In this document: piece after piece, positions 7,201 through 54,687 of the stretch
Layout of the letters: every line of letters starts with the position of its first letter
How positions within the stretch are numbered: the first letter of the stretch is position 1
DNA from: Planctomycetota bacterium
GTDB lineage: Bacteria; Planctomycetota; SZUA-567; JAFGNG01
Direction of reading: 5' to 3'
Length of the DNA: 58,952 nucleotides
Assembly (NCBI GenBank): GCA_016927125.1
Contig: JAFGNG010000028.1
Coordinates: 1-58,952 of the forward strand
Position numbers and translations under genes: made by a program
The notes under the pieces: generated by a model
What the model was told of the DNA's origin: nothing
What the model saw: only the letters and a program-made list of their open reading frames with translations
The model's database searches: none

Positions 7201-7265
7201 GTGATATATGAAAAAGTTTCCTGCCCTGTGAAGCCTGAAGATTCCTGCGTGCATAACCTAAATTT

Positions 7266-7299
7266 GATAAAGCGCCCACTCCCCCTTGGGCGCTTTATC
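7266..7299 (-). terminator. Perfect 13-bp-stem hairpin downstream of the sigma-fusion gene
   Basis: GATAAAGCGCCCA (7266-7278), an 8-nt loop, then TGGGCGCTTTATC (7287-7299), 70 nt after the stop at 7369. No strong T-tract follows, so terminator function is uncertain. Confidence 0.45.
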
Positions 7300-7368
7300 A
7301 GGAGGCACAATTTTACCTCAACTTAGCAAAGCTGTTAAACGCTCATTGCGCTAATAACCGTATGCTCT

Positions 7369-10300
7369 TTAATCAAACACAAGCCGTCCCAACCGCTTGT
7401 GTTTATGCCAGTCAGCATAAGGCTGATAAGACCAACTGCTTGGCGCTTTATTATCATTGCGGAAAATACGGAAGAAATTAATCCGCCAGCTCTGCAATTG
7501 GTCGGCTTGAGTAAACTCAGCCAGAGGCAACTTGACTTCCGCAGTCCAGTAACCGTCACAGGGTTTGCATATTGCTTGCCAGTCTAACTGGAACGTGTAA
7601 TCTCGTTCTTCTTGCCGCACGTTCTGGTCAAACCGAATGCCAGCGGTATTAAAAGCTAATTGGTAATAGCTACCTTCTGATTCATCTGGTTGGATCATCA
7701 TCGCCAGGATATCGTCTCGTGAATCAAAAAATTCTGGTTCTCCATCTGCAATTGCCTGCAGTTGAGTCGGATCCGGATCGCTGCAGGCAAAAGCTAAATA
7801 GAGGAAAGTATCGTCGTAGAGGGCCTTGACCCCAGTTTCGATAGTGGAGCGTTGCGCCTTGGTTACCTGCCAGCACCTCACTTGGAAGGGCGATTCCTGC
7901 CAGGCTTCTTCATCCAACGCTCCGTCAAGCTCAAGCGGTTCTGTCACTCGTTTGGCAGTTATTGAGGCAAATTCTCCTGCTTTTTGGGTTGCTTCAACCT
8001 TATTCCATTCTAGCGGCAAAGAAAACTCTAACTCAAGGCTTGGTCGCACGTAGGTTGCTACATCGGCAAAGTCCGCCGGCACTTCTACGGGACCGTCATC
8101 ACCGTTATTAGCGTCGGGGATCAAGCGATCGACTATACCGGGATTATCATTATGCACCAGCGCTGACATTAACGCTTCACCTTCCTGGGGGTTCCAGAGA
8201 TTGTACCAGAGAATATTGCCGTTATTGAGAAGGGCCCAGCCACCATTGGGGTGGTTACTCGGCTTGTCTATTAAAATCACGGTATTGGGCTGGAGTTTTT
8301 CCGGCACCTGGGTAATTGGCAGGTATAGGTAATCGCTGTGGAATCCTTCGCCCCCCTCCGCTTGCAGCTGTGTCTTGGTAGGTGAAATAAAAGACTGTGG
8401 ATTGGATAATTCCTGCACCGTGGCCGCCAATTCTTCCAGTGAAGAGGGCATGCGCTGGTGTTGTTCGCGGAAAGAGGATATCCCGCGGTGGATTTGCTTG
8501 AGCTTGTTTTGCTGTTGATTCCGCAATGCTTTTTGCTGCGCCTCCCATTGGTTAATTGACTTAACAACAGTTTGGGTTAACGCCACTGCGGTTTCAGAAA
8601 TAACTTCCGTGGGTAGCTTGACCGCAATCTGTAATTTGCCAGCCTCAACTCCGATGCAACCCGTAACCGGCTGGGTGGAATCCGGCAATTCGCCAAGAGC
8701 CTGGGAGACCATCAGCACCTGGTCGTCCAGCCAACTAAGCGGCAAATCAGCCGCTAATTTCTGCAACGCCGCCGGCTGCTGGCCAAGGAGTTTCATCGTA
8801 TCCAAGAGGTAAATTGCGCCAAAGGCAAGCTGTTTCGTATCAGTAGCTTGTAGCGCTGCTCGGAACTCCTCACGCTGGCCTACTCCTGGGTTCGCTTGCT
8901 CAACCTGGTTAATAAGTTTCGCCAAGCTTGCCACCGCGTCGTCTTCACTCAGCCCGAATCCCTGCTGGTTTATCTCAATCACAAGTCGATCAGTAAACGT
9001 AGTAAGTTGCTGATGTTGCCAGTATTGCTGGAATATTGCCATCTCTGGCGCGGGTGGCACTTCGGCAAATTTAAATGCAAATTTGCTGTAAGGCATACCC
9101 GCAACTTCACCCGCCGCATCATCGAAGGTAGACTCCAGGCTGAAGGGCATGGCAAGCTCCTGGGTTATGTCATTAAACGTATCTGTGAAGTTTGCCAGTT
9201 CCTCCGGTAGAATTTCCTGAAAAGCCTTTGCATCTTTAACTTCGGTAAGATTGGCATTTTTGAATCCTGCGCCAGTAGAGAGTGGCACCACAGCCATACA
9301 GGCCTCTCCCTCTAACAACGATAGCAATTGTGAATGCTCCTCCGGCTCCTCGATTTCAGCTAAGAATATCTGGGGATTATGCGAACCGAAAAATTCTTCC
9401 GCCTTTGCCCGTATCACCTGAATAACCTCCATTACTTCAGGTTTAATGTTGCTGCTAACTGCAGCCACACTGTCTGCTGGCAAGAGCTGCAACAGCGGAT
9501 AGGTTGGCATTTCATTCTCATAAGCTTGCACCAACCGCTCCAACTCGCTCCCCGCTTTGGGCAGGAATTCACCCGTCAATACCAGCTTTTCTTCATTCAT
9601 GCTTACATCGTAACGGATCCCGTTTAGCATCTCGAAAACTTGTCGATTCATAGCCAGCCAGTTCGGCAGCCATTTTCTTATAAACTCTGGATTATTCCCC
9701 TCCGCCATTTGCTCTGGTAGCTCCGCCAAAAAAGTGTCGAGCACCTCGACATTCACCTGCATCAACTTTTCTACATCTATAGTTATTCGCAAGGTAGTGT
9801 CTTCTGGCAATTTCAAGGATTTCCATTTCTTAAGGGTGTCTGCTAAAGCAGGCAATGACTGCCGTTCACCCACGGCGATACAGTTATTTGGCAAACCGGT
9901 TAGGAGTCCAAGCTGTATCGGGGCTGGGTCAATAAAATCAAGATGATAAAAATCAGCCGAAGTGTCGGGGTTCTCAAAATCAACCTTCGGTGAAGTTACT
10001 TGCCAACCATACTGTGCCGCGACCGATAAGGATTCCTCCAGATTACGGATCGGCAGAATCACAGCAAACCTTATATTTGCTGGATCTTCAGGAGCGGGAT
10101 TAAAGAACACCACTTGGATGCCCTGGCTCTGATCAATAAGGCCGGGAGGGGCATTGCCAGGTTCAAAAATCGGCGCTACTTTTTGCAGCCATTGTTCGGT
10201 CATGCCAGGATACATTAATGCCGCTGCCGGTGTGCCTTTGGTGACTGCAATTAAAAACTCTTCCGTATCCTTGATGGAGGTTTCCAATGGCCCGGTATTG

Positions 10301-11169
10301 ATATGCATAATCATATCCCCGGGGAAAGAAACCTCTTCTACAGCAGTGATCGCTTCCTTAACCTCTACTGCTGGAGCTTCCGACATTGCTTCTACCACTA
10401 TTGGCGCGGCTGCACCAGCCACTGCTACTGCCGCGACTGTGACTATTGCCGCGGTTTTCATCTTTGTCCAAAAGATCATTTTTGCTATTCCTTTCGCTAT
10501 GGCAGTACTGGTCGCGGTCAGCACCACCCCCTTAGCCGTCACCAACACGGTAGATACGGTCGCGGCGGCAAGTTCCGCCGGGGCTGCCATGACTGCCTTC
10601 GCCGGCAACAAGGTCGCCAGCATCGCCACCGGCACGGCAATGCCCTTCCGGCGCAGAACTCCGCGCAATCTTTCAATCGCAGACGCGACCCGTTTCTTGG
10701 CAGCGTCTTCCGAGACAGATAGCTCTGCAGCTATCTCTCGCATAGATTTATTTTGTAAATACCGCAAGATTACGGCCTTGCGATCTCTTGCCCGAAGTGA
10801 GACCAGGGCGTGATCAAGGAGGGGAGTGATAGAATCCCAAACACTTTCATCATCTTGATTATTTACTGCGGCCTTCGCCGCGTTGGTTTCATGATACATT
10901 CGTCGCCTCCGGCTTCTAAGTGCATGCCCAGCAGCATAGCGGGTGGTATTAAGCAGCCACCCGGGCAGGAATACACTTTCTTTAATACTCTCTGCCTTCT
11001 GGGCAAGAAACAGAAAGACCCCTTGAGTTACATCTTCAGCAAGATGCGGATCCTGCACTTGTCGCAAAGCGGCCGAATAAACCAGATCAAGGTGGCGATT
11101 GACTAATTCTTCAAAAGCACTCTCGCACCGGCTTTCAGCATATTTTTGCAGCAATTGGGCATCACTCAT
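7369..11169 (-). CDS. ECF-type sigma-70 factor fused to a TM segment and a ~1000-aa extracytoplasmic domain ending in a CBM9-like module
   Basis: 1266 aa. Residues ~1-185 show sigma region 2 (DLVYSAALRQV...EDVTQGVF) and region 4 HTH (MREIAAELSVSEDAAKKRVASAIERLR). An Ala/Val/Gly-rich TM segment (AAIVTVAAVAVAGAAAPIVV) lies near aa 240-258. The last ~195 aa align with the C-terminus of the 47602-52266 protein. Strong RBS GAGGAGGAG. Confidence 0.8.
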   Translation of the reverse strand: MSDAQLLQKYAESRCESAFEELVNRHLDLVYSAALRQVQDPHLAEDVTQGVFLFLAQKAESIKESVFLPGWLLNTTRYAAGHALRSRRRRMYHETNAAKAAVNNQDDESVWDSITPLLDHALVSLRARDRKAVILRYLQNKSMREIAAELSVSEDAAKKRVASAIERLRGVLRRKGIAVPVAMLATLLPAKAVMAAPAELAAATVSTVLVTAKGVVLTATSTAIAKGIAKMIFWTKMKTAAIVTVAAVAVAGAAAPIVVEAMSEAPAVEVKEAITAVEEVSFPGDMIMHINTGPLETSIKDTEEFLIAVTKGTPAAALMYPGMTEQWLQKVAPIFEPGNAPPGLIDQSQGIQVVFFNPAPEDPANIRFAVILPIRNLEESLSVAAQYGWQVTSPKVDFENPDTSADFYHLDFIDPAPIQLGLLTGLPNNCIAVGERQSLPALADTLKKWKSLKLPEDTTLRITIDVEKLMQVNVEVLDTFLAELPEQMAEGNNPEFIRKWLPNWLAMNRQVFEMLNGIRYDVSMNEEKLVLTGEFLPKAGSELERLVQAYENEMPTYPLLQLLPADSVAAVSSNIKPEVMEVIQVIRAKAEEFFGSHNPQIFLAEIEEPEEHSQLLSLLEGEACMAVVPLSTGAGFKNANLTEVKDAKAFQEILPEELANFTDTFNDITQELAMPFSLESTFDDAAGEVAGMPYSKFAFKFAEVPPAPEMAIFQQYWQHQQLTTFTDRLVIEINQQGFGLSEDDAVASLAKLINQVEQANPGVGQREEFRAALQATDTKQLAFGAIYLLDTMKLLGQQPAALQKLAADLPLSWLDDQVLMVSQALGELPDSTQPVTGCIGVEAGKLQIAVKLPTEVISETAVALTQTVVKSINQWEAQQKALRNQQQNKLKQIHRGISSFREQHQRMPSSLEELAATVQELSNPQSFISPTKTQLQAEGGEGFHSDYLYLPITQVPEKLQPNTVILIDKPSNHPNGGWALLNNGNILWYNLWNPQEGEALMSALVHNDNPGIVDRLIPDANNGDDGPVEVPADFADVATYVRPSLELEFSLPLEWNKVEATQKAGEFASITAKRVTEPLELDGALDEEAWQESPFQVRCWQVTKAQRSTIETGVKALYDDTFLYLAFACSDPDPTQLQAIADGEPEFFDSRDDILAMMIQPDESEGSYYQLAFNTAGIRFDQNVRQEERDYTFQLDWQAICKPCDGYWTAEVKLPLAEFTQADQLQSWRINFFRIFRNDNKAPSSWSYQPYADWHKHKRLGRLVFD

Positions 11170-11590: not shown

Positions 11591-11653
11591 TCAAATTGCG
11601 GATGATGTATTATTTTCCCCAAACTATTAATTTCTACTAATTCTCCATTAATC

Positions 11654-11683
11654 TTGATTTTTATCTGGAAATCAGGCTATATT
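11654..11683 (+). promoter_or_regulatory. Candidate sigma70 promoter of the TetR-RND operon
   Basis: TTGATT (11654-11659), 18-nt spacer, TATATT (11678-11683). The palindromic operator follows immediately. Confidence 0.4.
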
Positions 11684-11688
11684 ATGCA

Positions 11689-11706
11689 ATACTGACCGGT
11701 CAGTAT
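11689..11706. promoter_or_regulatory. Perfect 18-bp palindrome, probable TetR operator
   Basis: ATACTGACCGGTCAGTAT is its own reverse complement. It sits between the -10 element and the RBS of the TetR gene. Confidence 0.6.
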
Positions 11707-11725
11707 GCGTTTAAGGATTAGAAAA

Positions 11726-12340: not shown

Positions 12341-12393
12341 AAAAGAGATTATCCCTTAAATTGTCGATAAAAAACCTTGGAGGAATGAATTCC

Positions 12394-16715: not shown

Positions 16716-16729
16716 AAAGGATTTAATGC

Positions 16730-26261: not shown

Positions 26262-26574
26262 AACTCCATTCCTCATTCTAAAGACTTTATAACCGAAGAA
26301 TAATTTCGAAATTAATCTATGGTGATAGTTATAGATAGGTAAGCTACGTGATGGGCAGGTAATAACACCGGATCTGCTATAATTATACTGATATTTTCCA
26401 GAGGCATTTACCCGCCGGCTGTTAAGTAATAATTCCAGCTACCTATTATAGCAATAAGTTAAAAAATATCCTCCGCTGAGCACATATTGGCTTTATTATA
26501 AAATGTAGTATAAATCAGTATTTGTCAATTAGCTTGTTATAATATAACCTGATAAGTGTATTATATCCTCTAAT

Positions 26575-31163: not shown

Positions 31164-31281
31164 GGTTATTCTCCATCTGCCGGACAATAACTAATTTTAA
31201 TAAGATAGAAGTTCTCAATAAATAAAGGAACGGTGTCTGCCAAATATACCTAAGCAGCGATTCCAATCAAGTTGTAATGAC

Positions 31282-37363: not shown

Positions 37364-37870
37364 TTACTTCCCGTTTTTCCTGGTGGTCGTAAAGAGGTCA
37401 TAAAGCACCGGGATCAGCACCAGGGTAAATACGCCGGAAATAAAGATCCCGCCAATTGACGCAACTCCAACGCCATTGCGCATCTCGGCGCCAATCCCTC
37501 GTCCGAAAGCCAGGGGCATCATTCCCAGTACCGCTGCCATGGTAATCATGACAATGGGACGGAAGGGTTCGCAGGTGGCGCTGATCATAGCTTTGTGGCG
37601 CGGGACACCCTCGGCAATATGTACATTGAACTGGCCCACAATCAGGATCGCGTTATTCACCACAAAGCCCGTCATGATGACAAAGCCCATAATCTCAAAG
37701 ATACCCAGGCTCAATCCGGCAAGGGCGAGGGCCCAGATCATGCCAATCAATGCGAGGGGGAGAGTAATAATCGCCAGGCTGGGTTGCTTATAGGATTCCA
37801 AAATCGCCGCCAGGGTTAAAAAGATCATGATTACCACTATAAGCAGGGCCTCGCCAAGAGCAACCTGTGC
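37364..37870 (-). pseudogene. 5'-truncated remnant of an RND permease (last ~168 codons, TM10-12 region)
   Basis: The frame is open only from 37870 (in-frame TAA at 37871-37873). The translation ...LAAILESYKQP..GFVVNNAILIV..PIVMITMAAVLGMMPLAFG..VLIPVLYDLF matches the C-terminal ~15 percent of pumps such as 13617-16715. No RND sequence lies upstream. Confidence 0.7.
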
Positions 37871-39514: not shown

Positions 39515-39595
39515 TAAGCATTTGGATTGATTCCTATTATCCCCTCGCCTGAACATTCTCGCCCACCTCAACCTAAGGGGAAAAGGAGATCTATC

Positions 39596-41629: not shown

Positions 41630-41648
41630 TTATAACTCCAAGGAGAAG

Positions 41649-44600
41649 ATGATGGGGCTTCCCGAGAACAATCTATATTCTTCAGGAGATGGCTGGCTTG
41701 CCAGGATTATTGCCTTTTGTTTGCAGAATCGGCTGGTTGTCCTGCTGGCGGTGTTGGCTATGATTTGCTGGGGTTTGATTACTGCACCGTTCGACTGGAA
41801 TTTAAAATTTCTGCCGCGCGATCCGATCGCGGTGGACGCGCTCCCTGATCTCGGTGAAAACCAGCAGATTGTCTTTACTGAATGGCCGGGCCGCTCGCCT
41901 CAGGACATTGAAGACCAGATCACCTATCCCCTAACTTCTGCCCTGCTCGGTATTCCCGGGGTAAAGTCAGTCCGCAGTTCCTCGATGTTCGGCTTTTCCA
42001 ATATCTTCATCATCTTCTCGGAAGATGTAGAGTTTTACTGGTCGCGAACCAGGATTCTAGAAAAGCTTAACTCTCTACCCGCTGGAGCCCTACCGGAAGG
42101 GGTCAAACCCACCATGGGGCCTGACGCCACTCCTTTGGGGCAGGTGTTCTGGTATACCCTTGAGGGACGCGATCCGGAAGGCGCTTCTACCGGAGGCTGG
42201 GATCTGGATGAGCTCCGCAGCATCCAGGACTGGCTGGTACGCTATGAATTGATGGCAGTTCCGGGTGTAGCCGAGGTCGGCTCGATAGGCGGGTTTGTCA
42301 AGGAATACCAGGTAGATGTTGATCCGTATGCGATGATCGCCAAGGGGGTTAACCTTACCCAGGTAATAATGGCGTTAAAAAACAGCAACCTCGATACCGG
42401 CGCAAGGACTATGGAGATAAACCGGGTTGAATATGTGATTCGTGGTCTGGGGCTGGTTAAAAATATTTCTGACCTTGAAGAAGCAGTAGTCACAGAAACT
42501 GATAATATCCCCCTGCGGGTTAAGGATATTGCCCGGGTTAGCCTCGGCCCTGCCCTGCGGCGTGGCGCCCTGGATAAAAGCGGCGCAGAAGCGGTCGGCG
42601 GGGTGGTGGTTGTCCGCTATGGAGCAAACCCCCTGGAAGTGATCCAGTGGGTTAAGGACAAGATCGCTGCCTTCAGCCAAAGCCTTCCCCAAAAGACCGT
42701 ACCTGTCCGCAACAGTGACGGTTCTGTAAGGGAGGCAGTGTCACAGGTTAAGGTGGTTCCTTTCTACGATCGTACCGGCCTCATCCATGAGACCCTCGGC
42801 ACCCTCAACCGCGCGCTGGTGGAGGAGATCCTGGTAACCATCATCGTGGTGGTGGTTATGCTGATGCACTTTGGTAGCTCAATGCTGATTTCTGGTCTCC
42901 TGCCTCTTGCGGTTTTGATGTGCTTCATTGCCATGAAGATTTTCGGTGTTGACGCCAATATTGTGGCGCTCTCGGGGATTGCCATCGCAATCGGGACCAT
43001 GGTCGATATGGGCATTGTCCTCAATGAAAATATTCTTAAACACATGGAGGCAGCAGACAAAGATGCCTCTCCCATACAAACCATCTATCAGGCCACTATT
43101 GAGGTCGGGAGCGCGGTTTTGACCGCGGTTTTGACAACTGTGATCAGCTTCCTGCCCATCTTTACCATGGAAATGGCGGAAGGCAAGCTCTTCAAGCCCC
43201 TGGCTTATACCAAGACCTTCGCGCTGGTGGCATCCCTGATTGTCGCACTCACTATCATCCCCCCGGTAGCGCTGACAATTTTCCGGAAAAGGAAAAAACT
43301 AAGCAAATATGCTTTCATATTAATTGAATTACTCTTTCCTGTAGCGCTTTACACGCTTTACTTTTTAGAGAGTTGGTTACTCTTTGTAATTCTGATTCTT
43401 CTTGCGATATACCTAATTATTCAAGGATGGCTCCCTGAAAAGGTGCGCTCTATCCTGCGTCGCACCGCAAACTACCTTGCCGTTGCTGTGGTGGCAGTCT
43501 TTTTAACCAGCAGGTGGCAGCCTCTGGGAATTGAGCATGGGGTGGTTCGCAACCTAATCTTTGTGGCTGTTATCATCGGCGGATTTTTATTCCTGATCCA
43601 TTTGTTCCATAAAGGTTATCCACAGATGTTGCACTGGTGTTTGGCAAATAAGAGTAAGTTCCTGTTAATTCCCATAATCTTGGTATTATTTGGCGCGACT
43701 ATCTGGCTGGGATTTAATTCGGTCTTCAGCTTTATCCCTGCCATAGGTAATAAAATCGGAATTGGTGAGACCATCCGCCTTTCCAGCCCCTGGGCATGGG
43801 CCAGCCACAGGTTCCCCGGCTTGGGCAAGGAGTTTATGCCGGATTTTGATGAAGGCTCATTTTTATTAATGCCGACAACTATGCCGCACGCTTCAATCGG
43901 TGAGGCTATGGATGTTCTCCAGAAACAGGATATGGCGCTGAATGCCCTCCCCGAGGTCAGCCTGGCAGTAGGGAAAATTGGCAGGGTGGATAGCCCGCTC
44001 GACCCCGCCCCGGTTTCAATGATTGAAACCGTGATTAATTATCATCCCGAGTATTTGGCTGATAGTAGCGGCAAGAAGCTCGCCTTCGTGTATGCTTCCG
44101 ACCAAACCGATCTCTTTAGAAATCCTTCGGGAGACCCAGTAATGGCTCCTGATGGCGAACCTTATACAGTATTAGGTAAGTTTTCCCGGGATGAATCCGG
44201 CGTGTTAATTCCAGATCCTGGAGGGAGTCCCTTCCGGATATGGCGCCCGGTTCTCGACCCGCAGATAAATCCTGGCCGAGAGGAATGGGCCGGAATTAAT
44301 AGTCCGGATGATATCTGGGAGGAAATCCTGCGGGTAACGGAAATCTCCGGCACTACCTCCGCGCCGAAACTGCAGCCGATTGCCGCGCGGCAGGTGATGC
44401 TCCAAAGCGGTATGCGCGCCCCTATGGGGATCAAAATCCTGGGCAAGGGGCAAGCTTCTCTGGAGGATCTCGAAGCGGTTGGATTGGAGTTGGAAAAGTA
44501 TTTACAACAGGTTCCATCAATAAAAGCGAATACTGTCAACGCGGAGCGGGTTGTGGGTAAGCCTTACCTGGAGATCAAAATCGACCGCCTGGCGATTCAG

Positions 44601-45617
44601 CGCTATAACCTGACGGTGGCGGAAGTGCAGAATGTTATTCAGGCGGCAATCGGGGGCATGCCGATCACCACCACGGTGGAAGGGCGTGAGCGTTACCAGG
44701 TTCGGATTCGTTATCAACGTGAACTGAGGGATAGCATTGAAGATCTTGAACGCATCCTGGTTTCCAACCGCAAGGGGTTGCAGGTTCCCCTGAAAGAGCT
44801 TATCGAAGAGCGCAAGATTCAATACCGTCGCGGCCCCCAGTCGATCAAGAGTGAGGATAGCTCGTTGGTAAGCTACGTCCTCTTTGACAAGCAATCTGGG
44901 TATGCTGAGGTGGATGTGGTTAATGCAGCGAGAGAATTTCTGCAAAGCCGGATAGAGGCCGGTGAGCTAATCCTTCCCGCAGGCGTAACTTACAAGTTCG
45001 CTGGAAGTTATGAAAACCAGATCCGCAGTGAAAAAAAGCTGATGGTAGTCCTACCTTTGGCCTTGTTGATAATCTTCTTTATTCTTTATTTCCAGTTTAA
45101 ATCCGGCTCTACCACTCTCTTTGTCTTTTCAGGTATCTTCGTCGCAGCTGCGGGTGGGTTTATTATGCTCTGGCTATATGGGGAAGGCTGGTTTTTAAAT
45201 TTTTCAATTTTCGGAACCAACCTGCGCGACTTGTTCCAGATGCATCCGATCAACCTGAGCGTGGCGATCTGGGTTGGTTTTATCGCCCTCTTCGGCATTG
45301 CCACCGATAACAGCGTAATCATTGCAACTTATCTGGACCAGACCTTTGCCAAACAAAAACCTGCGAGCATTGAGACGATTCGCGAGGCAACTGTTACTGC
45401 GGGAATGCGCCGGATCCGGCCGTGCCTGATGACAACTGCAACCACCATCCTTGCGCTGCTGCCGGTCTTGACCTCTACGGGCCGGGGCGCTGACATCATG
45501 ATCCCAATGGCTATCCCGGTTTTTGGAGGTATGATTCTTACCCTCATTACCGCCTTCATCGTCCCAGTGTTATACTGCGGATTGAAAGAGACGAAGAGTA
45601 AAAACTTATCCCCTTAG
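41649..45617 (+). CDS. CusA/CzcA-type heavy-metal RND permease, unusually long (1322 aa)
   Basis: RND hallmarks are present throughout. There are about 100 extra hydrophobic residues after TM6 and an extended second periplasmic loop compared with ~1040-aa family members. Confidence 0.85.
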   Translation: MMGLPENNLYSSGDGWLARIIAFCLQNRLVVLLAVLAMICWGLITAPFDWNLKFLPRDPIAVDALPDLGENQQIVFTEWPGRSPQDIEDQITYPLTSALLGIPGVKSVRSSSMFGFSNIFIIFSEDVEFYWSRTRILEKLNSLPAGALPEGVKPTMGPDATPLGQVFWYTLEGRDPEGASTGGWDLDELRSIQDWLVRYELMAVPGVAEVGSIGGFVKEYQVDVDPYAMIAKGVNLTQVIMALKNSNLDTGARTMEINRVEYVIRGLGLVKNISDLEEAVVTETDNIPLRVKDIARVSLGPALRRGALDKSGAEAVGGVVVVRYGANPLEVIQWVKDKIAAFSQSLPQKTVPVRNSDGSVREAVSQVKVVPFYDRTGLIHETLGTLNRALVEEILVTIIVVVVMLMHFGSSMLISGLLPLAVLMCFIAMKIFGVDANIVALSGIAIAIGTMVDMGIVLNENILKHMEAADKDASPIQTIYQATIEVGSAVLTAVLTTVISFLPIFTMEMAEGKLFKPLAYTKTFALVASLIVALTIIPPVALTIFRKRKKLSKYAFILIELLFPVALYTLYFLESWLLFVILILLAIYLIIQGWLPEKVRSILRRTANYLAVAVVAVFLTSRWQPLGIEHGVVRNLIFVAVIIGGFLFLIHLFHKGYPQMLHWCLANKSKFLLIPIILVLFGATIWLGFNSVFSFIPAIGNKIGIGETIRLSSPWAWASHRFPGLGKEFMPDFDEGSFLLMPTTMPHASIGEAMDVLQKQDMALNALPEVSLAVGKIGRVDSPLDPAPVSMIETVINYHPEYLADSSGKKLAFVYASDQTDLFRNPSGDPVMAPDGEPYTVLGKFSRDESGVLIPDPGGSPFRIWRPVLDPQINPGREEWAGINSPDDIWEEILRVTEISGTTSAPKLQPIAARQVMLQSGMRAPMGIKILGKGQASLEDLEAVGLELEKYLQQVPSIKANTVNAERVVGKPYLEIKIDRLAIQRYNLTVAEVQNVIQAAIGGMPITTTVEGRERYQVRIRYQRELRDSIEDLERILVSNRKGLQVPLKELIEERKIQYRRGPQSIKSEDSSLVSYVLFDKQSGYAEVDVVNAAREFLQSRIEAGELILPAGVTYKFAGSYENQIRSEKKLMVVLPLALLIIFFILYFQFKSGSTTLFVFSGIFVAAAGGFIMLWLYGEGWFLNFSIFGTNLRDLFQMHPINLSVAIWVGFIALFGIATDNSVIIATYLDQTFAKQKPASIETIREATVTAGMRRIRPCLMTTATTILALLPVLTSTGRGADIMIPMAIPVFGGMILTLITAFIVPVLYCGLKETKSKNLSP

Positions 45618-47601: not shown

Positions 47602-50600
47602 CTACTCAAACCGCAAGCGCCCCAGGCGTTTCTGCGTGTGCCAGTCAATATACCCCTGGTATGACCAGCAGCTCGGGGCGACCAGGTCGTTGCGGTACTT
47701 GCGGTAGAAATTAATCAGCCACCGCTCGCGCTGTCTGGTCTGTTCCAGATCCCCCAGCGGGATTAAGACCTCGGCAGTCCAGTAGCCCTGCCCCTTCCAG
47801 ATCACTGTCTGCCACGGCGGTTTGAAATCATAATCGCGGCCGCCATTCTCAACCTTCTGGTCAAAATGGACGCCCTTGGTGTTGAAGGCCAGTTGGTAAT
47901 AGAGATCGACCTCCGCGTCGGGATGGATCATCATTGCCAGCACATCATCGCGCGAGCCGTAGATTTCATTCTCCATCTCTGCGCTGGCTTTGAGCTTATC
48001 AGGCTCCCGATCGGCGCAGGCAAAGGCGACGTAGAGATTCTTGTCATCATAAAGCGCCTTGACGCCGGTCTCCAAAATCGACTTCTGCTTCTCCTTCACC
48101 TTCCAGAAGCCGGTGGTGAAAGGAATTGCTTCCCAGGCGGCTTCATCCAGGCGACCATCAATGGTGATTTCTCCGGTAGCGCGTTTAGTCAGCATGGTGG
48201 GCAGCGCTTCCGGATCCGGGTTGGGATCTATCTTTGCCAGGCTTTCCGGGAGGAATGCCTGGTATTGTGCAGCCTTCTCCAGGAATTCCCACCAGGGATG
48301 GTAGAACTGATAGTTGGTAACCCGGTTCCAAACCTTGGCGTACAGTCCCTGGGCAAGCTCATGGCGGGAAGCGGCAATGGTTTGATGCAGGTAGTCCTGT
48401 TCTTGTTCTGAAATGCTGAGCTTGATTTGGGGATCAGCCAGCAGTTTATCAGCGCGCTCAATTATATTACTCAGGAAAGAGAGCTCTGGCCCGCTGATCG
48501 GCTGGGTATGGAATTCAAGGATTTTTAAATCTTTAGAGTTTACCCGGAAAACAGCCAATCCGTAAGGGTTGAGTTTGACCGGCACATGAATCATACCATC
48601 ATCCCTATTGGTTCCGGTTTCTCTACCGCTGGGAATCTCATAGACCCTGCCTTTGGCTTCAATTACTACGCTGCCAGCAATGTGCCAGTAGCCGGGATTC
48701 GCAACATAGATCCAGGATTCATTCCCGGAAGAATATTTGCGGATCGCCAGGTTGGTGGTGAGCCCTGTATTCATGACTACTTCAAAATCCGCCTTGGGAA
48801 GGTGCGTAAAGGTTTGCATAATGCTGCGCAGTTCCTGCTCGTGGCCGACATTGATATGGAGATCGGTCCAGCCGCCCAGAACCAGCCCCGGGTCCGCGGT
48901 GATGATTGCCTGGATAAAGGCCTCGCGCGCGTGGTAGCCGCTCGGCTGCGGCAGTGTCCGCGTCTTGGAACAATTCATAATCCAGTCTGATTCCACCAGG
49001 AGATGGCGGTCCTGCGCGCCTTCGCTCTTCAGCATATAGCCGCCGCTCAGGAGCATATTCTCGTCCCAACTGGTGCGGACCAGGACGCCGCGCTGCCTGC
49101 TCTTGGCAAAGGCCGAGACAATCCCCGGATCGGTGCGCGCCAGCCAGCAGTAGGAATCCTGGCTCGGGAAGTCGCCGTGGATATCCTGCCAACTGATGGT
49201 CCAGCGGGTATTACAATAATTTTCAAGCGCCCCCAGGCCCTCAAGGTCAATTCCGAAATCCTTCATAATGTCTTGAAACGAATCTTCCGAGTTTGCCAGG
49301 TAGCGGCAGAATTTTTTATCCCCTTCCACCAAGGTGTTGACCAACTCCAGATCCTCGCGGAAATTCTTCAGCCGCTGGACTGCCTCTGCGCAAAAAGCAG
49401 TATAAGCCCCGGCGCGCCAGTCGAGGAAGTTCCGGCGGAGTTCTTCATCTGCTTTGATCGCGTCAAACCTCTTGGCAAAGCGGCTGGGATCGGTTTCGGC
49501 AATCCCGAGATCGTTGCCGGTTTCCTTGGCAAAGCGTTCCATGGCATGGTCATCAAAGCTCGCTTCCAGGGGATTGTCATAGTTGCTGCCCAGGCCATAG
49601 CCCGGCAGCCAGTAGCTGGCAGTGCTGTCCGGGCCGCTCAAGTGGTGAACCCCGCGGTAGCGAGGCAGGTGGGCGTAGGCGCGCGATAAGCTTTCCAGTA
49701 AATCAAAGAACTTCCCCTGCACTGCCGGGTGCATGAAGTTCTGCACCTCGGAAACCCGCGCAAAGCCATAGCGTTGTTCACCCTTGCCGTTTACCAGCCA
49801 GGGGGTATCGGCGCCCTTGGCAACCTCCGCGTTATTCGCGTACCCGCGCACCCTGCCGCTCTGGCTGAAGCCAACGCCAGCATAGAAATCTATGTTGTTA
49901 ATCTCAAAGAGATTAGCCATCATGGTGCGCATGCAGTGGCGAATACGAGAGGTTTCTATTAAGGGAACCGGCACGAAGGGCGTATCCCCCTCGTTGTACT
50001 GGTAACATCCCATGACATGGGTATTCTGCCCGGAGAACTTGAGGTACTGCACATAGCGCTCGCCGGTTTCCAGGAGCCAGACCAGGTCGCGCAACTGAAC
50101 CTTCATCAACGGCTCCGTCTCCGGTTCCACCAGCCAGGTATCTTCCCAACCCTCTGCGTTCTTCAAATACCGCGAGCCAAAACTGCGCCCGATGCCGGAG
50201 GTGTAGAAGCAACGCTCGCTATGAATACCATAGTTGCGGTTGTTACCGCTCTCGACAGAAGGGAGATCCCCCTTGACCCGGTAGATGCGCAAGAGTTTAG
50301 CGGCCCCGTTTTGGTTATTAATGGCGTTGAGGACATCCACGGTATGCGGGCCTTCGTCCGCGACGTGGATCCAGTTGAGTTTCTGCATTTTATTGGTCAG
50401 GTAAAGCTTGCCCCCGGTCTCAATCCCCGCGCCGGTCTGGCTGTTGGTCCAGATCTTCTCGCGCTTGCTCGTGATAGAGACGACAGTGATGCGCTGTGCG
50501 TCGTCGGGGTACTCCAGCTCCATCAGGTAGAAGGAACCGGGATGCTTGAATTCTATCCGGTAACTGAAGCCGGAGCCGCGCCGGGGGTCAGTCACCTCGC

Positions 50601-52266
50601 GATAACGCATTTCTCCATTTTGCGTAATGGTCGGTGCCTCCACCCGGGGAGCCACCATCCCGGTAAGGCTCGCCGGCATCCGGGATTCGCGCCAGGGATG
50701 CGGATCTTCCGGGTTGGTGAAGTCAATAGTGTCTTCCAGCTCCAGCTCAAGCCCTTCTTTATAATCGGTCCCAGCAATCTTTTTGAGTTCAAGTCGCCTC
50801 AGAATCACCAGCGGCTCGCGGGAACGCTCCGCAATCACCTTGCCATCACTGCCGGTAAGTTTAAGCGCCAAGGCGTAAACCCCGAAAGGCTGTTTGCCGA
50901 GATTAAGAGTATAAACCAGGGAATTATTGATTTCCTTAAAGTCGGATATTGTCTTTTGAGAAACCTCCTGGCTATCACCGTCCAGATCCGCTTTGCTGAA
51001 ATAAGCGGTCAGTTGCGGCGATTTATCCTTGAAGCCGATCGGCGTATAAACCTCAACAATCGCATCCTCGGAACTGCGGTAAAAGAGGTCAGGTCGAGAA
51101 GGGTTTTTCATAACCAACACCCCGCCATACTCCGGGATGCCGAGCTGCCGCGCCGGGCCGCGGAGATCAATCTTCGGCGCAGAGCCCTTGCGCTCCCGGT
51201 AATACAGCTCCATCACCCCGCTGACTACCTCGGCCTCGTCCTCCCCGTAATCCTCCGCCTTGACCTGGAGCCATGCAGAACTATCGAATTCGGCCTGGTT
51301 CCAGCCTTCCTGGTAATCCGGTGAAAATCTCCAGCCTTCAGCGGTAGCCGTTTCGATCACCGCGCCGCTCACCATTACGATCTTCGCCTGGAAATATAGC
51401 GGTGGGTTCTTGCCGATCCTGCGGCCATAAAAGCCGGCAACGTTCTTGCCGGGCTTGAGATACTTGGCAATATCCACGGGAATGGTATGATCCAGGGACA
51501 GCATCCCGGTTTCTGTGATCTCTTCGCCATTGATATAGAGACGGCTGATCACCTCATCATTTCCGGCAAGGTGCGCGTAGTTGGTAATGGTGGCATTGGC
51601 AATGGCGCGCCAAACGCCGCCCTCGGGGAGGGTGAAGTCGCCGCGGCAGTAGCCTTCATAGATCGGTTGGACAAGTTTGACTGATTTCAGTTTGATGCGG
51701 GTTCCCGCTTCAGCCCTGATCCTCAGTTCCAAGCCATCCGGATTCGGGCCGGAGGTCTGCAAGGGCTCGAAGGCCAGCTCCTGCTCGCCCTGCCCCTCCA
51801 GGACTGTCCTCCCGGTGCGAGACTGCGGTTGGCCATCGCTCCAGTAACGCAGCCGCCATTCACTCTTATCCGAAGATTGGCTGAGCTGCAATTTCACTGC
51901 AAAATATTCCTGCCAGGTATTAGCGATCTCTGCAATTACTTGTTCGCCTTTGTAGTTGCCCCAGCCGAGGATGGCTTCTTCCCCGGTGACAGTGAAAGCG
52001 AGGCTCTCGCCATCCAACTCCACCTCCTCTACCCCGAGGAAGGTGGTGAAGTTAGCGCGATTAGCAGTTGCGAGAAAGACCTTGTCGCGTTCTTTAACGG
52101 GAAGCTCCATGCCGCTGCCGAAGAGATATTCATTAATCTCCGGATCCTCGATCTCCATGGAGGGGGCGATTGCTTCCGGTTCGGTTCCAGTTGCAGCCGC
52201 GAAAAGAGAAAATGAAAGGGAAATTATTATGGTAAAGGAGCTTAAAAATCGTGGTAGCTTTGACAT
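47602..52266 (-). CDS. Giant secreted glycosidase-like protein (1554 aa), paralogue of the N-terminal half of 18558-26261, with a C-terminal CBM9-like module
   Basis: Signal peptide (FTIIISLSFSLFAAATG), RBS AAGGAG. Collinear similarity to the 2567-aa protein over ~1300 aa, for example DFTLPEGGVWRAIAN vs EFTLPAGTVWRAIAD and HSERCFYTSGIG vs HTERTLYSSGIG. The last ~195 aa align with the C-terminus of the sigma fusion. Confidence 0.8.
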   Translation of the reverse strand: MSKLPRFLSSFTIIISLSFSLFAAATGTEPEAIAPSMEIEDPEINEYLFGSGMELPVKERDKVFLATANRANFTTFLGVEEVELDGESLAFTVTGEEAILGWGNYKGEQVIAEIANTWQEYFAVKLQLSQSSDKSEWRLRYWSDGQPQSRTGRTVLEGQGEQELAFEPLQTSGPNPDGLELRIRAEAGTRIKLKSVKLVQPIYEGYCRGDFTLPEGGVWRAIANATITNYAHLAGNDEVISRLYINGEEITETGMLSLDHTIPVDIAKYLKPGKNVAGFYGRRIGKNPPLYFQAKIVMVSGAVIETATAEGWRFSPDYQEGWNQAEFDSSAWLQVKAEDYGEDEAEVVSGVMELYYRERKGSAPKIDLRGPARQLGIPEYGGVLVMKNPSRPDLFYRSSEDAIVEVYTPIGFKDKSPQLTAYFSKADLDGDSQEVSQKTISDFKEINNSLVYTLNLGKQPFGVYALALKLTGSDGKVIAERSREPLVILRRLELKKIAGTDYKEGLELELEDTIDFTNPEDPHPWRESRMPASLTGMVAPRVEAPTITQNGEMRYREVTDPRRGSGFSYRIEFKHPGSFYLMELEYPDDAQRITVVSITSKREKIWTNSQTGAGIETGGKLYLTNKMQKLNWIHVADEGPHTVDVLNAINNQNGAAKLLRIYRVKGDLPSVESGNNRNYGIHSERCFYTSGIGRSFGSRYLKNAEGWEDTWLVEPETEPLMKVQLRDLVWLLETGERYVQYLKFSGQNTHVMGCYQYNEGDTPFVPVPLIETSRIRHCMRTMMANLFEINNIDFYAGVGFSQSGRVRGYANNAEVAKGADTPWLVNGKGEQRYGFARVSEVQNFMHPAVQGKFFDLLESLSRAYAHLPRYRGVHHLSGPDSTASYWLPGYGLGSNYDNPLEASFDDHAMERFAKETGNDLGIAETDPSRFAKRFDAIKADEELRRNFLDWRAGAYTAFCAEAVQRLKNFREDLELVNTLVEGDKKFCRYLANSEDSFQDIMKDFGIDLEGLGALENYCNTRWTISWQDIHGDFPSQDSYCWLARTDPGIVSAFAKSRQRGVLVRTSWDENMLLSGGYMLKSEGAQDRHLLVESDWIMNCSKTRTLPQPSGYHAREAFIQAIITADPGLVLGGWTDLHINVGHEQELRSIMQTFTHLPKADFEVVMNTGLTTNLAIRKYSSGNESWIYVANPGYWHIAGSVVIEAKGRVYEIPSGRETGTNRDDGMIHVPVKLNPYGLAVFRVNSKDLKILEFHTQPISGPELSFLSNIIERADKLLADPQIKLSISEQEQDYLHQTIAASRHELAQGLYAKVWNRVTNYQFYHPWWEFLEKAAQYQAFLPESLAKIDPNPDPEALPTMLTKRATGEITIDGRLDEAAWEAIPFTTGFWKVKEKQKSILETGVKALYDDKNLYVAFACADREPDKLKASAEMENEIYGSRDDVLAMMIHPDAEVDLYYQLAFNTKGVHFDQKVENGGRDYDFKPPWQTVIWKGQGYWTAEVLIPLGDLEQTRQRERWLINFYRKYRNDLVAPSCWSYQGYIDWHTQKRLGRLRFE

Positions 52267-52397
52267 GTTTAGCTCTCCTTCTTCCGATTAAGGTTAAAAA
52301 AGGAATGAATCTCTCCAGAGGTTAATGCGTTGCGACTGAACCTCTGCAAACTACTTGTCAGGTTAAACTTTTTTTTTATTAAGTCAAGAAGTGCATT

Positions 52398-52426
52398 TTG
52401 CATTGTATACTATTTCTTGTTATAAT
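52398..52426 (+). promoter_or_regulatory. Candidate sigma70 promoter of the DUF4838 gene
   Basis: TTGCAT (52398-52403), 17-nt spacer, TATAAT (52421-52426). Confidence 0.4.
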
Positions 52427-52545
52427 TTAACTCTATTCGTGGCTGAAGGTTATATATTACCTGTCTTAATATTTGAGCTGGATTTACCCTAGTGTCACTC
52501 AAATTGTAACTTACCGCTGTTTACAGATGATACTGGAGCCACTGC

Positions 52546-54687
52546 ATGGATTCTGCTAATGATAATCACAATCAGGACTGGCTTATCCTCTCACCAACAG
52601 GAAATTTCAACTCCGTGGATGAAGCGGCTATGGCGGAAGAGAGGATTGACTGGACTGAAAAGGAAAACCTGGACCAGGAGGCTTGCACGCTCTCCTTCGC
52701 AAGTAAAGAGATTGTGGAGCACTTGCACAAAATCTCCGCAGTTAATTTTGTGCATTGTGATAACCTTTCTTCCTTTTCCAATTCTCCAGAACGCAACGGG
52801 GTTATAATCCTCGCACCGCACTCATTTGCAGAATCCCACGAGTTGATTAAACCTTTTTTAGATCCAATTGAAATTCCGTCAGGTGCACAGGCGTTTCTTT
52901 TAAGATCATTTGAAATTGAAAAACACCGCTGGTATCTGGTGCTTGGCTCCGACCGCGCCGGCGCCTTATACGGGGCATATGAATTGTTAAAATCTCTCAG
53001 TATCCGCTGGTTTTCGCCGGATCCACAGGGCACTGATCTCCCGACAAGCCTGCCCTCTCCCCTGCCTGAGCTAAACACCAGCCAGTCCCCTTCATTCCTG
53101 AGCCGGGGCTTCAGCGGCGGCAACCGTGGTGACCGGGCTTTCCTTCTCTGGATGGCCCGCAACCAGCTTAACCTCTGGACCCCCACGGAAGCTGACCGGG
53201 CCTTTGGTAAAAAACTGTGCCTGAAATTCAGCATGGCCGGGCACCGGATCTTCGGCAGGTATATCCCGCCAGAAGAATACTTTGAGAAGCACCCGGAATG
53301 GTACGGGCTGCATAATGGCCAACGGCAGAACCGGGTGGACTCGCTCGAAGGCTATAACATGTGTTTTTCCAATGCCGAGGCGCGCCAGAAGATCGCTGAG
53401 GCATTGACTGAAGATTTAATCTCAGGGGAATATTTCTACGTTGACAAGATGAATATCTGGCCGATTGACAATGGCAAGTGGTGCGAGTGCGATGACTGCC
53501 AGGCACTGGGCAACCCCACGAATCAACTCTTGTTATTGATTCACGATTGTAATAGTGAGGTCCGCAAAGCCCGTCGTGAAGGCCGCCTGCAGCGGGAGGT
53601 CGAGATTGCCTTCCTCGCTTATCATGAAACCCTGCCGGTTCCTTCCCGGCCCCTGCCGGAAGGATTTGATCATGAGCATATTATCGCGACCTTCTTCCCA
53701 ATCGAGCGCTGTTACGCCCATCCCTTTGCGGATCCGTCCTGTACCGAGATCAACCAGGCGATGCGGGATTACTGGGAAGCGTGGACCAGGCCGGATTGCT
53801 ATTTCAAAGGTGATATGCAGATGGGTGAATATTACAATGTCGCCCTCTTTGCCGGTATTCCGGTCGTCTTCATGAAGATCCTGGCAGCGGATATCCCCTA
53901 CTACTACGCCACCGGCGCGCGCCATATGCATTACATGCATGTCGCAATCGCTGACTGGGGAACGATGGCGCTCACCAATTACCAGTACGCGGCGCTCCTC
54001 TGGAACCATGAGCTGGACAGTGCCACCTTCCTGGAGGATTTCATGGCCCGGCGCTACCGGGAGCAGGCTGCACTGATGTATGAATTTTATTCCTTGCTGG
54101 AAAAGGCGATGGGTAATGCCAAGGCCTTGAAGCATTATACCGGCATGATGGGAGTCAACCGCCACTGCTTCTGGAGTTCGCTGCGTACTCCCGCCTCTCC
54201 CGAGAATCCCGTAGAGCTTTTCCAGACCGAACACTTCCCTTATGCGCCGCGTGAACGCACTAATAACAACGCGCCTTCATTTTTGGAAATGCTGGAGATG
54301 CTAGAAGAGGCGAAGGGGATGCTCGACCAGGCGCTTCTGGAGTGTCGGGATCCGGAGGTTGCCCTCCGCCTTGCCGCTGATGCGCGGCGGTTCCGGTATG
54401 GGCGCAAGGTGGTATATTTCCTCTATCACTTCGCCCGCTTGCGAATGTTTGAAAACCAGGGGGATCAAGAAAGGGCTAAACTGGAAGCTGAAACCCTCTG
54501 CATGTATGGCGAGGCCCTGCGCCGGATAACGCGGATGGTAAACTCCCTGAGTATCCGGGAGCGTGCCTATAAAAACGGCTTGACCGCTACCTGGCTGATC
54601 GAGGCCTACGAGGGAGCTATGGCAGAATACGGGGTGGAGATTGCAGTTCAAGGCGAGGCCACCGGCAACTTGATCGCCCCGCCTTAA
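52546..54687 (+). CDS. DUF4838-type protein (putative glycoside-hydrolase-related), no signal peptide seen
   Basis: 713 aa. The segments GALYGAYELLKSLSIRWFSPD and WCECDDCQALG resemble patterns I recall from DUF4838 proteins. The assignment is from memory only. Confidence 0.55.
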   Translation: MDSANDNHNQDWLILSPTGNFNSVDEAAMAEERIDWTEKENLDQEACTLSFASKEIVEHLHKISAVNFVHCDNLSSFSNSPERNGVIILAPHSFAESHELIKPFLDPIEIPSGAQAFLLRSFEIEKHRWYLVLGSDRAGALYGAYELLKSLSIRWFSPDPQGTDLPTSLPSPLPELNTSQSPSFLSRGFSGGNRGDRAFLLWMARNQLNLWTPTEADRAFGKKLCLKFSMAGHRIFGRYIPPEEYFEKHPEWYGLHNGQRQNRVDSLEGYNMCFSNAEARQKIAEALTEDLISGEYFYVDKMNIWPIDNGKWCECDDCQALGNPTNQLLLLIHDCNSEVRKARREGRLQREVEIAFLAYHETLPVPSRPLPEGFDHEHIIATFFPIERCYAHPFADPSCTEINQAMRDYWEAWTRPDCYFKGDMQMGEYYNVALFAGIPVVFMKILAADIPYYYATGARHMHYMHVAIADWGTMALTNYQYAALLWNHELDSATFLEDFMARRYREQAALMYEFYSLLEKAMGNAKALKHYTGMMGVNRHCFWSSLRTPASPENPVELFQTEHFPYAPRERTNNNAPSFLEMLEMLEEAKGMLDQALLECRDPEVALRLAADARRFRYGRKVVYFLYHFARLRMFENQGDQERAKLEAETLCMYGEALRRITRMVNSLSIRERAYKNGLTATWLIEAYEGAMAEYGVEIAVQGEATGNLIAPP

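Follow-up and report, generated by a model that had tools for sequence, protein, structure and literature searches.

The window, by which we mean the whole stretch of DNA analysed (58,952 nucleotides of contig JAFGNG010000028.1, Planctomycetota bacterium assembly GCA_016927125.1), encodes on its minus strand an ECF sigma factor fusion and a secreted glycosidase-like protein, here termed the giant, which end in related C-terminal modules. The genes lie 36 kb apart, with efflux and adhesin-like genes between them. The features concerned are as follows.

7265..7300, minus strand: terminator-like hairpin with a 14-bp stem, about 70 nt past the stop codon of the fusion gene
7369..11169, minus strand: gene for the 1,266-aa ECF sigma fusion, MBN1256224.1 (ORF)
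7372..8019, minus strand: C-terminal CBM9-like module of the sigma fusion, aa 1051-1266 (BLASTP, conserved columns, tree)
8020..10380, minus strand: orphan extracytoplasmic spacer of 787 aa, aa 264-1050 (homology searches)
10381..10461, minus strand: single strong transmembrane (TM) helix, aa 237-263 (Kyte-Doolittle scan, peak 2.42)
10645..11169, minus strand: ECF sigma domain, aa 1-175, with region 2 at 22-90 and region 4 at 118-169 (Pfam, TIGR02937)
47602..52266, minus strand: gene for the 1,554-aa secreted glycosidase-like giant, MBN1256239.1 (JXA52_00890) (ORF)
47605..48252, minus strand: C-terminal CBM9-like module of the giant, aa 1339-1554 (BLASTP, AF2, Foldseek, profile, Pfam)
48793..50235, minus strand: TIM-barrel-like core of alternating strands and helices, about aa 678-1158, bounds approximate (AF2 secondary structure)
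51256..51582, minus strand: jelly-roll domain, about aa 229-337, resembling part of GH78 rhamnosidases (family profile, NCBIfam)
52189..52266, minus strand: predicted signal peptide of the giant, aa 1-26 (hydrophobic aa 6-26 after K3 and R6)
52546..54687, plus strand: 713-aa DUF4838 protein, GH67N-like at its N terminus, encoded divergently next to the giant (Pfam; context only)

BLASTP aligns the two C termini over 216 residues with 109 identities (50%), 63% positives and no gaps (E=1e-78). On comparison of the full-length proteins, fusion residues 1051-1266 and giant residues 1339-1554 form the single significant segment (E=6e-65), and no significant similarity was found outside the CBM9-like module. 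The sequence-only reading had held the two C termini to be paralogous and alignable without large gaps, with about half of the positions identical; this is borne out by the alignment and by the phylogeny described below, and each of the blocks it listed (ETGVKALYDD, LY[LV]AFAC, SRDD[IV]LAMMI, YYQLAFNT, GYWTAEV, W.INF[FY]R and WSYQ.Y.DWH...RLGRL.F) is present in both copies. The bounds it gave (47605-48189 and 7372-7956, 195 aa) were correctly placed but short by 21 aa, since both the alignment and the modelled fold begin at 48252 in the giant and at 8019 in the fusion. The window holds only these two copies of the module (the next match when both were searched by tblastn against the six-frame window has E=0.07), and in both the last residue abuts the stop codon exactly.

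As modelled, the module is a beta-sandwich of the CBM9 superfamily, though a non-canonical CBM9. The AF2 model is of the giant's copy (pLDDT 95.9), the fold of the fusion copy following from its 50% gapless identity. The top Foldseek matches are 4jpq, TmCBM9-2 (1i82) and CkCBM9.3 (7nwn), each with a probability of 1.00; 4jpq is structurally the closest (TM 0.73), with E=1.4e-8 and TM 0.66/0.74 for 1i82_A, at approximately 17% identity to TmCBM9-2, and E=1.3e-8 for 7nwn. A profile of the module family matches 1i82 over nearly its full length (E=1.5e-14), and together with the model and the Foldseek matches it upholds the earlier assignment of a CBM9-like or DOMON-like fold. Against the Pfam CBM9_1 model (PF06452, cut-off 23.4 bits) the giant copy scores 22.1 bits and the fusion copy 20.4-20.8 bits, each just short of a cut-off that 49 of the 60 nearest non-giant carriers of the module pass; these carriers also have beta-helix/pectate-lyase, GH123, GH84, AXE1, PcRGLX or CBM_4_9 domains. 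Neither window module matched CBM9_2 (PF16011) at E<=0.1.

TmCBM9-2 (from Thermotoga maritima Xyn10A, 1I82) and CkCBM9.3 (7NWN) share with the window modules the same fold, detectable sequence homology and the equivalent of Trp175, and, like the giant's module, are C-terminal on a glycoside hydrolase. BACUNI_03838 (4JPQ; of the Pfam CBM9_2 type) shares the C-terminal signature 'FH.P..FG.L.F', but stands alone as a protein of some 220 aa, whereas the window modules are C-terminal domains. The aromatic clamp of TmCBM9-2 consists of Trp71 and Trp175 (PMC8280721). Half of this two-Trp clamp is kept in both copies: the Trp175 equivalent is W204 (module numbering), within 'DWH', whereas the Trp71 equivalent is Ser100, with a Tyr or Phe at -2 (residue 98) that, judging by its position, might act as a substitute. 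Since, in addition, Glu77 of TmCBM9-2 is replaced by Ala, the canonical CBM9 site is remodelled.

The fusion is organised as a sigma domain, about 60 Ala-rich residues, the TM helix, the 787-aa spacer and the CBM9-like module. The sigma domain is of the ECF type (group 4), with Pfam scores of 35.6 bits for Sigma70_r2 and 34.7 bits for r4_2, and with 77.8 bits for TIGR02937 versus a cut-off of 42.9. The TM helix is flanked by KMIFWTKMK on its N side and by acidic residues on its C side (positive-inside); the topology is based on hydropathy only, and is less than fully certain because residues 176-218, rich in Ala, form a second hydrophobic segment, though a weaker one (peak 1.86). With the giant's signal peptide, this helix predicts an extracytoplasmic location for both modules. 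The approximately 60 residues between sigma region 4 and the TM helix are too few for a separate anti-sigma N terminus; residues 161-300 contain neither Cys nor His, and no zf-HC2 or FecR match was found in the fusion with Pfam. For the spacer, a word-index search of 5.8 billion proteins returned no homologue, the only matches being weak and confined to the module included in the query, and there was no match to the spacer in Pfam or among PDB sequences. A by-eye likeness of fusion residues 880-1010 to DUF1559 / H-X9-DG proteins of planctomycetes was rejected (BLASTP versus an SBP_bac_10 protein of L001, E=0.3; no Pfam match), as was the idea that a frameshift or an artificial fusion produced the sigma/TM junction, there being no alternative minus-strand ORF of at least 100 aa within 7369-11169.

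The AF2 model of the giant (pLDDT 87.3, pTM 0.90) matches multidomain GH66, GH13, GH2 and GH78 enzymes in Foldseek, with the entire model rather than single domains as the query. The jelly-roll family profile matches residues 186-288 of 3w5m, a Streptomyces GH78 rhamnosidase (E=5.4e-9), as well as the lectins 6t0q/6kbj, and NCBIfam rhamnosid_Stmyc gives a weak match at giant aa 233-337; this domain is possibly CBM67-like, after the CBM67 of SaRha78A. The catalytic region has no sequence match to a classified GH family in Pfam, NCBIfam or the PDB, the matches being at the level of the fold and the jelly-roll. At least 70 relatives (clusters at 50% identity), most of about 1,500 aa, occur in Planctomycetota, Armatimonadota and relatives; the members of this family are secreted and lack Pfam annotation, with the CBM9-like module as their standard C terminus.

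In a tree of 84 modules, the fusion module is sister to the giant module of the same genome in 495 of 500 NJ bootstraps, and the sigma copy nests among the giant C termini, beside P0010 and P0022. This nesting reveals that the sensor of the regulator came from the enzyme, i.e. that the 3' end of a giant-type gene was duplicated in a planctomycete lineage, in the direction from enzyme to regulator. The two modules have 11 rare residues in common, compared with 2-4 for control pairs. Across 51 other giant modules, 28 columns reach a conservation of 90% or more; the fusion module retains 27 of these although it has diverged to 50% identity, which points to long purifying selection. No other sigma fusion with the module was found, by phmmer with the window's sigma domain, among the best 150 of 24,741 relatives of the module in 1.84 billion representatives, nor among 80 GTDB loci. 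The fusion stands alone among 5.8 billion proteins and derives from a MAG of an uncultured organism, so conservation of the fusion cannot support its function. A word-index search with the module alone, left out of this census, returned 8 proteins and missed both window proteins and all giants; a genome scan with a 4-sequence alignment retrieved mostly distant CBM9_1/DUF5916 proteins.

Given these results, we consider the chances slightly better than even that the fusion is a one-polypeptide transmembrane signalling device, with a putative glycan sensor in the form of its enzyme-derived CBM9-like module. The extracytoplasmic module would bind a glycan of the same kind as does the enzyme's module, and glycan occupancy would alter the state of the tethered sigma domain, which would then be freed, probably by regulated proteolysis. 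Proteolytic release of a sigma factor has been demonstrated in IutY and is the proposed mechanism of the ECF52/53 fusions (PMC8999054, PMC5826349), and proteolytic signalling has been shown for RsgI anti-sigma factors (PMC10328401, PMC12203970). The sharing of the module suggests that the regulator may sense what the enzyme binds, and a regulatory link between the fusion and giant genes is plausible, if putative. A more ambitious proposal is that of a self-contained glycan-sensing sigma factor with its sensor copied from an enzyme under its control, such that binding of the giant's substrate or product would free the sigma domain and turn on expression of the giant/DUF4838 locus; we regard this complete circuit, which would have been assembled recently by duplication of the enzyme's binding module, as unlikely.

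Comparison of the regions upstream of the fusion (11170-11704) and the giant (52267-52545), which as a comparison of two sequences only has low power, revealed no shared ECF-type promoter motif beyond chance. Bipartite matches (6-mer, 14-18 nt, 5-mer) between them numbered 1, versus 2.1 expected, and no GGAAC..CGT-type ECF motif was found in either. The sole long word that they share, the 9-mer GTGGCTCCA, was discounted as a candidate; in the giant's region it lies at the DUF4838 start codon. The pairing of fusion and giant is not conserved, the fusion being a singleton and the regulators being of the LacI/GntR or AraC type in the two homologous loci with an obvious regulator. The window contains no gene for a site-1 or site-2 protease.

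The design of the fusion may be viewed as a variation on the known ECF52-type fusions and RsgI/SigI. As in the fusion, RsgI/SigI of Clostridium thermocellum and its relatives employs a transmembrane regulator with an extracellular carbohydrate-binding sensor, the RsgI sensor modules being of kinds also found on the enzymes. Signalling in this system is proteolytic, and the sigma factor thereby set free controls the genes of the cellulosome, which degrades polysaccharides (PMC10328401, PMC12203970, PMC6852018). However, RsgI and SigI are separate anti-sigma and sigma proteins, and SigI is not an ECF, whereas the window fusion is one polypeptide with an ECF domain; the RsgI sensors are of the CBM3, PA14 or GH type in a Gram-positive Firmicute host, whereas that of the fusion is CBM9-like. 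The fusion has no RsgI_N match and no detectable RsgI-type N-terminal or autoproteolytic domain. ECF52/ECF53 proteins of Actinobacteria, e.g. SCO4117, likewise join, in one protein, an ECF domain to one or more TM segments, an extended extracytoplasmic linker and a domain for carbohydrate binding (PMC5826349, PMC8999054). ECF52 proteins, restricted to Actinobacteria, have a zinc-finger anti-sigma part (ZAS, HxxxCxxC), a linker rich in proline and a module of the NPCBM type (smart00776); in contrast, the window fusion, from Planctomycetota, has no Cys or His from the sigma domain to the TM helix, an orphan spacer that is not proline-rich, and a CBM9-like module. The IutY-type hybrids (ECF243) are, like the fusion, membrane-tethered ECFs, activated in their case by regulated intramembrane proteolysis, by Prc then RseP (PMC8999054), but they have TonB-dependent cell-surface signalling and a FecR-like anti-sigma part, both of which the fusion lacks. 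No FecR or TonB-dependent receptor match was found in the fusion or its annotated neighbours. The analogy drawn in the sequence-only reading with trans-envelope signalling in polysaccharide utilisation loci thus stands only as a loose likeness, because the TonB-dependent transducer and FecR-like anti-sigma are absent; RsgI/SigI and the ECF52-type fusions are nearer.

The genes beside the fusion are MacAB-TolC-like genes (1856-6863) and a TetR/RND cluster (11705-18373), i.e. envelope/efflux rather than carbohydrate genes, and ECF sigma factors are classically regulators of envelope stress (PMC7826278). Both points, along with the altered canonical CBM9 site and the lack of a promoter link to the giant in our comparison, would fit a module that localises the fusion on the cell's own envelope polymer (peptidoglycan, capsule or LPS glycan), with the fusion reporting on envelope state, or being merely positioned there, and having no tie to the giant gene or its substrate. 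We nevertheless consider this unlikely: the terminator-like hairpin lies between the fusion and the efflux operon, homologues of the giant are found in glycan-utilisation clusters, and the nearest relatives of the module sit on polysaccharide-degrading domains, where its often N-terminal position implies that it is not a C-terminal sorting tag.

The Foldseek matches of the module also include 2ivf_C (E=2.3e-7, TM 0.65) and 7b04_C, and H205 (module numbering), in the 'WH' motif, is invariant in all 17 modules of the family alignment. Such matches could indicate a DOMON-type domain for a cofactor or small ligand, such as heme b, that senses redox or a non-carbohydrate ligand; the gamma subunits of ethylbenzene dehydrogenase and nitrite oxidoreductase are heme b examples of this type. 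This we find improbable, as the best structural and the only sequence-profile matches are to carbohydrate-binding modules, the carriers of the module are carbohydrate-active enzymes, and the invariant columns include no Met, Lys or further His that could provide the remaining axial ligand. About equally improbable, or fractionally more so, is that the fusion is an evolutionary accident with no sensing role, i.e. a by-product of domain shuffling or a decaying gene; its singleton status, orphan spacer and MAG source are what might be expected of one, but its 1,266-codon ORF is intact with no competing frames, its sigma regions score above curated thresholds, and the family-conserved columns have been kept, all but one, despite the divergence of the module.

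If the fusion does act as a glycan-sensing device, it would be a clear case of the invention of a regulatory input, in which the substrate-binding module of an enzyme was duplicated onto a membrane-tethered sigma factor, such that regulator and enzyme read the same molecule; only seldom can a tree reveal, as here, the direction of such a transfer. Carbohydrate-sensing sigma fusions, hitherto predicted in Actinobacteria alone, would then extend to Planctomycetota, as would RsgI-type logic, hitherto found in Firmicutes, here with another family of module and lacking any recognisable anti-sigma domain. We know of no substrate-sensing circuit derived from a duplicated enzyme binding module that has been described in Planctomycetota.

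Homologues of the giant adjoin GH78-like, GH106, GH2, GH88, GH32/43 and GH42 genes. These glycan-utilisation neighbourhoods, together with the barrel-like model, the GH fold matches and the jelly-roll profile, agree with the initial description of the giant as enzyme-like, and its family, in which some 1,300 residues lack annotation, makes a promising candidate for a glycoside hydrolase family outside the present classification.

The C-terminal ends of two proteins encoded in the window, a 1,554-residue glycosidase-like protein (here the giant) and a 1,266-residue ECF sigma factor fusion, are paralogous, as a sequence-only reading had claimed: their last 216 residues align with 50% identity and zero gaps (pairwise E=1e-78), and all the sequence blocks listed in that reading are present in both. 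Both genes lie on a 58,952-bp contig, the whole of the window, from an uncultured member of the Planctomycetota. The coordinates given in the earlier reading for this CBM9-like module were correct, except that the start was placed 21 residues too late. Full-length comparison revealed no similarity between the two proteins outside the module, and six-frame tblastn found no third copy in the window. The relevant features are:

47602-52266, minus strand: giant gene (ORF), hypothetical protein MBN1256239.1, 1,554 aa
7369-11169, minus strand: fusion gene (ORF), 'sigma-70 family' protein MBN1256224.1, 1,266 aa
48252 (giant) and 8019 (fusion), minus strand: module starts from the alignment, 21 residues upstream of those first read
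8020-10380, minus strand: orphan, predicted extracytoplasmic spacer of the fusion, 787 aa (residues 264-1050), from sequence searches
about 51256-51582, minus strand: jelly-roll domain of the giant (residues 229-337), from a profile match to a rhamnosidase and lectins
52546-54687, plus strand: DUF4838 protein, 713 aa, with a GH67N-like N terminus, divergent from the giant gene across a 279-bp intergenic region

In a neighbor-joining tree of 84 modules, the fusion module is sister to that of the same-genome giant (495 of 500 bootstraps), and the pair is nested among giant C termini, beside P0010 and P0022, the closest orthologues of the giant. The two modules have in common 11 residues each present in <10% of 51 other giants, compared with 2-4 for control pairs; four of the 11 lie in the loop bearing Trp204 (W204, module numbering). 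Of 28 columns with 90% or greater conservation across the other giants, the fusion module retains 27. Together, these observations imply that the fusion acquired its sensor end from the enzyme family, within this lineage; that end has since diverged to 50% identity while still under the family's constraints.

Assignment of the module to the CBM9-like/DOMON-like superfamily, as in the sequence-only reading, proved right at that level, as supported by structural matches and by a profile match to the CBM9 of Thermotoga maritima Xyn10A (TmCBM9-2). Taken singly, the two copies score 22.1 and 20.4 bits against Pfam CBM9_1 (gathering score 23.4), but the profile of an alignment of 28 relatives matches the TmCBM9-2 sequence (1i82) over almost its full length (E=1.5e-14). 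The AlphaFold2 model of the giant's module (pLDDT 95.9, pTM 0.92) has as its top Foldseek match in the PDB 4jpq (BACUNI_03838, a putative carbohydrate-binding protein; TM 0.73); 7nwn (a Caldicellulosiruptor CBM9) and the TmCBM9-2 complex with cellobiose (1i82; TM 0.66/0.74) also match, all three with probability 1.00. TmCBM9-2 grips its sugar via a clamp of Trp71 and Trp175 (PMC8280721). Of these two positions, that of Trp175 is retained as W204, within 'DWH', in both window modules, whereas that of Trp71 is Ser, with a Tyr or Phe two residues upstream that might complete a clamp, and Glu77 is replaced by Ala; the module thus departs from a canonical CBM9. Lower-ranked Foldseek matches are two heme-binding gamma subunits, those of ethylbenzene dehydrogenase and of nitrite oxidoreductase; that the module is a DOMON-type cofactor domain is nevertheless very unlikely.

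Run exhaustively with HMMER against 1.84 billion representatives, the subfamily profile picked up 24,741 relatives, of which 216 reach E<=1e-30. Among the best 150, about 70 are giant homologues, mostly of ~1,500 residues, with the module at the extreme C terminus. A word-index protein search with the 216-residue module gave only eight matches; it missed the two proteins of the window (100% identical) and every giant (35-47% identical), all of which the HMMER search recovered. Of the 60 nearest non-giant carriers, 49 pass CBM9_1; partner domains in such carriers include beta-helix/pectate-lyase, GH123, GH84, acetyl-xylan-esterase, rhamnogalacturonan-lyase-like and CBM_4_9 domains, and in many of the best of them the module is N-terminal. 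These partners and placements favour a role connected with carbohydrates and speak against the module being a C-terminal sorting tag.

For the first 1,338 residues of the giant, neither Pfam nor the PDB gives a sequence match. The giant's description as enzyme-like is, however, borne out by fold matches, a signal peptide and the gene neighbourhoods of its homologues. The secondary-structure string of the AlphaFold2 model of residues 139-1338 (pLDDT 87.3, pTM 0.90) reads, in order, as beta-sandwich domains, a TIM-barrel-like region of alternating strands and helices, a beta-sandwich and a helical bundle. All Foldseek matches of the model are multidomain glycoside hydrolases (GH78 rhamnosidase, GH2, GH66 dextranase and GH13), with low global TM scores, as expected for a multidomain query. 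In the GH78 rhamnosidase of Streptomyces avermitilis, the family profile matches residues 186-288 (E=5.4e-9), which we take to be the enzyme's rhamnose-binding CBM67; it also matches some lectins. The giant's jelly-roll domain may thus be CBM67-like, hinting at rhamnose-containing substrates. A word search gave 22 homologues in Pirellulales, Phycisphaerales, Armatimonadota and further MAGs; genes around homologues encode GH78-like, GH106, GH2, GH88, GH32/43, GH42, sulfatase and DUF6259 proteins. LacI/GntR and AraC regulators adjoin two homologues, and an AraC-type sensor domain and a ROK protein lie near two others. The giant thus probably represents an unclassified glycoside hydrolase family that merits CAZy-style follow-up: at 50% identity it has no fewer than 70 clusters, and its members, mostly of ~1,500 residues, have ~1,300 residues lacking Pfam annotation. 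The family can expand within a genome: the 8.6-Mb genome with homologue P0014 encodes a second CBM9_1-bearing protein, of 1,575 residues, 5 kb from it (the two genes lie at 485-5212, minus strand, and 10001-14536, plus strand, of locus L001) and, elsewhere, a paralogue, P0030.

Residues 1-175 of the fusion are a bona fide ECF domain, with Pfam r2 and r4 matches and 77.8 bits against TIGR02937 (cut-off 42.9). Next come some 60 residues, rich in Ala/Val and lacking Cys and His, and then a single strongly hydrophobic helix (residues 237-263). With KMIFWTKMK before it and acidic residues after it, this helix predicts an N-in/C-out topology. For the spacer that follows, a search of 5.8 billion proteins returned no relative, and neither Pfam nor PDB sequences gave a match; the module forms the C-terminal end. 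No competing ORF indicative of a frameshift artefact was seen. A terminator-like hairpin (14-bp stem) lies 3' of the stop codon, so the fusion is probably not co-transcribed with the downstream MacAB-TolC-like operon.

We lean towards the fusion being a membrane-tethered ECF sigma factor, the outer CBM9-like domain of which would bind a glycan related to that of the giant's module, with regulated proteolysis freeing the sigma domain. Proteolytic release of the sigma domain has been shown for IutY (PMC8999054) and proposed for ECF52 SCO4117 (PMC5826349, PMC8999054), and regulated proteolysis has been shown for RsgI (PMC10328401, PMC12203970). The fusion matches the one-component design of ECF52/53 and the logic of RsgI/SigI, yet fails defining features of each known design: it lacks the ECF52-type ZAS domain and the FecR domain and TonB-dependent partner of IutY, is not a separate sigma/anti-sigma pair as is RsgI/SigI, and differs from ECF52/53 and RsgI/SigI in module family and phylum. 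A same-strand five-gene run in L060 (Hymenobacter sp. BRD67, 2400-8529) and L057 likewise places a CBM9-like protein (866 aa, CBM9_1 plus DUF5916) beside ECF signalling genes (ECF sigma, zf-HC2 anti-sigma and two DUF4097 'toastrack' proteins), in an arrangement unrelated to the fusion.

That the fusion controls the giant is unlikely. The genes are separated by 36 kb that include efflux systems and FG-GAP/cadherin giants, and no common ECF-type promoter signal above chance was found. None of the genes immediately flanking the giant in the window was recognised as encoding a transcription factor, whereas at least two homologous loci have one, which is weak circumstantial evidence for a circuit. 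The DUF4838 protein is probably another glycosidase-like gene; its pairing with the giant was not seen in five homologous loci examined. A module role in envelope-glycan localisation or stress is similarly unlikely. No counterpart of the fusion was found by the 5.8-billion-protein word search, among the best 150 module relatives or in 80 GTDB loci. That the fusion is a functionless accident, its module having kept nearly all of the family's conserved columns, seems highly improbable. The evolutionary inference, from enzyme module to sigma fusion, is clean; the regulatory idea is based on one MAG-derived singleton.

The intervening FG-GAP-repeat proteins (both minus strand) have cadherin and PKD domains: one of 2,572 residues (18558-26276), with a dockerin-like C terminus, and one of 1,442 residues (26859-31187). 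In the heavy-metal-type efflux cluster (38114-45617), the 1,322-residue RND pump (41649-45617, plus strand) matches ACR_tran in two stretches, implying a large insertion; its membrane-fusion partner (39527-41629, plus strand) has two HMBD heavy-metal-binding motifs and DUF3347. Adjoining the cluster is a gene remnant, a 157-residue ORF (37364-37837, minus strand) that covers no more of an AcrB-type RND pump than its C-terminal end (positions 872-1020 of ACR_tran).
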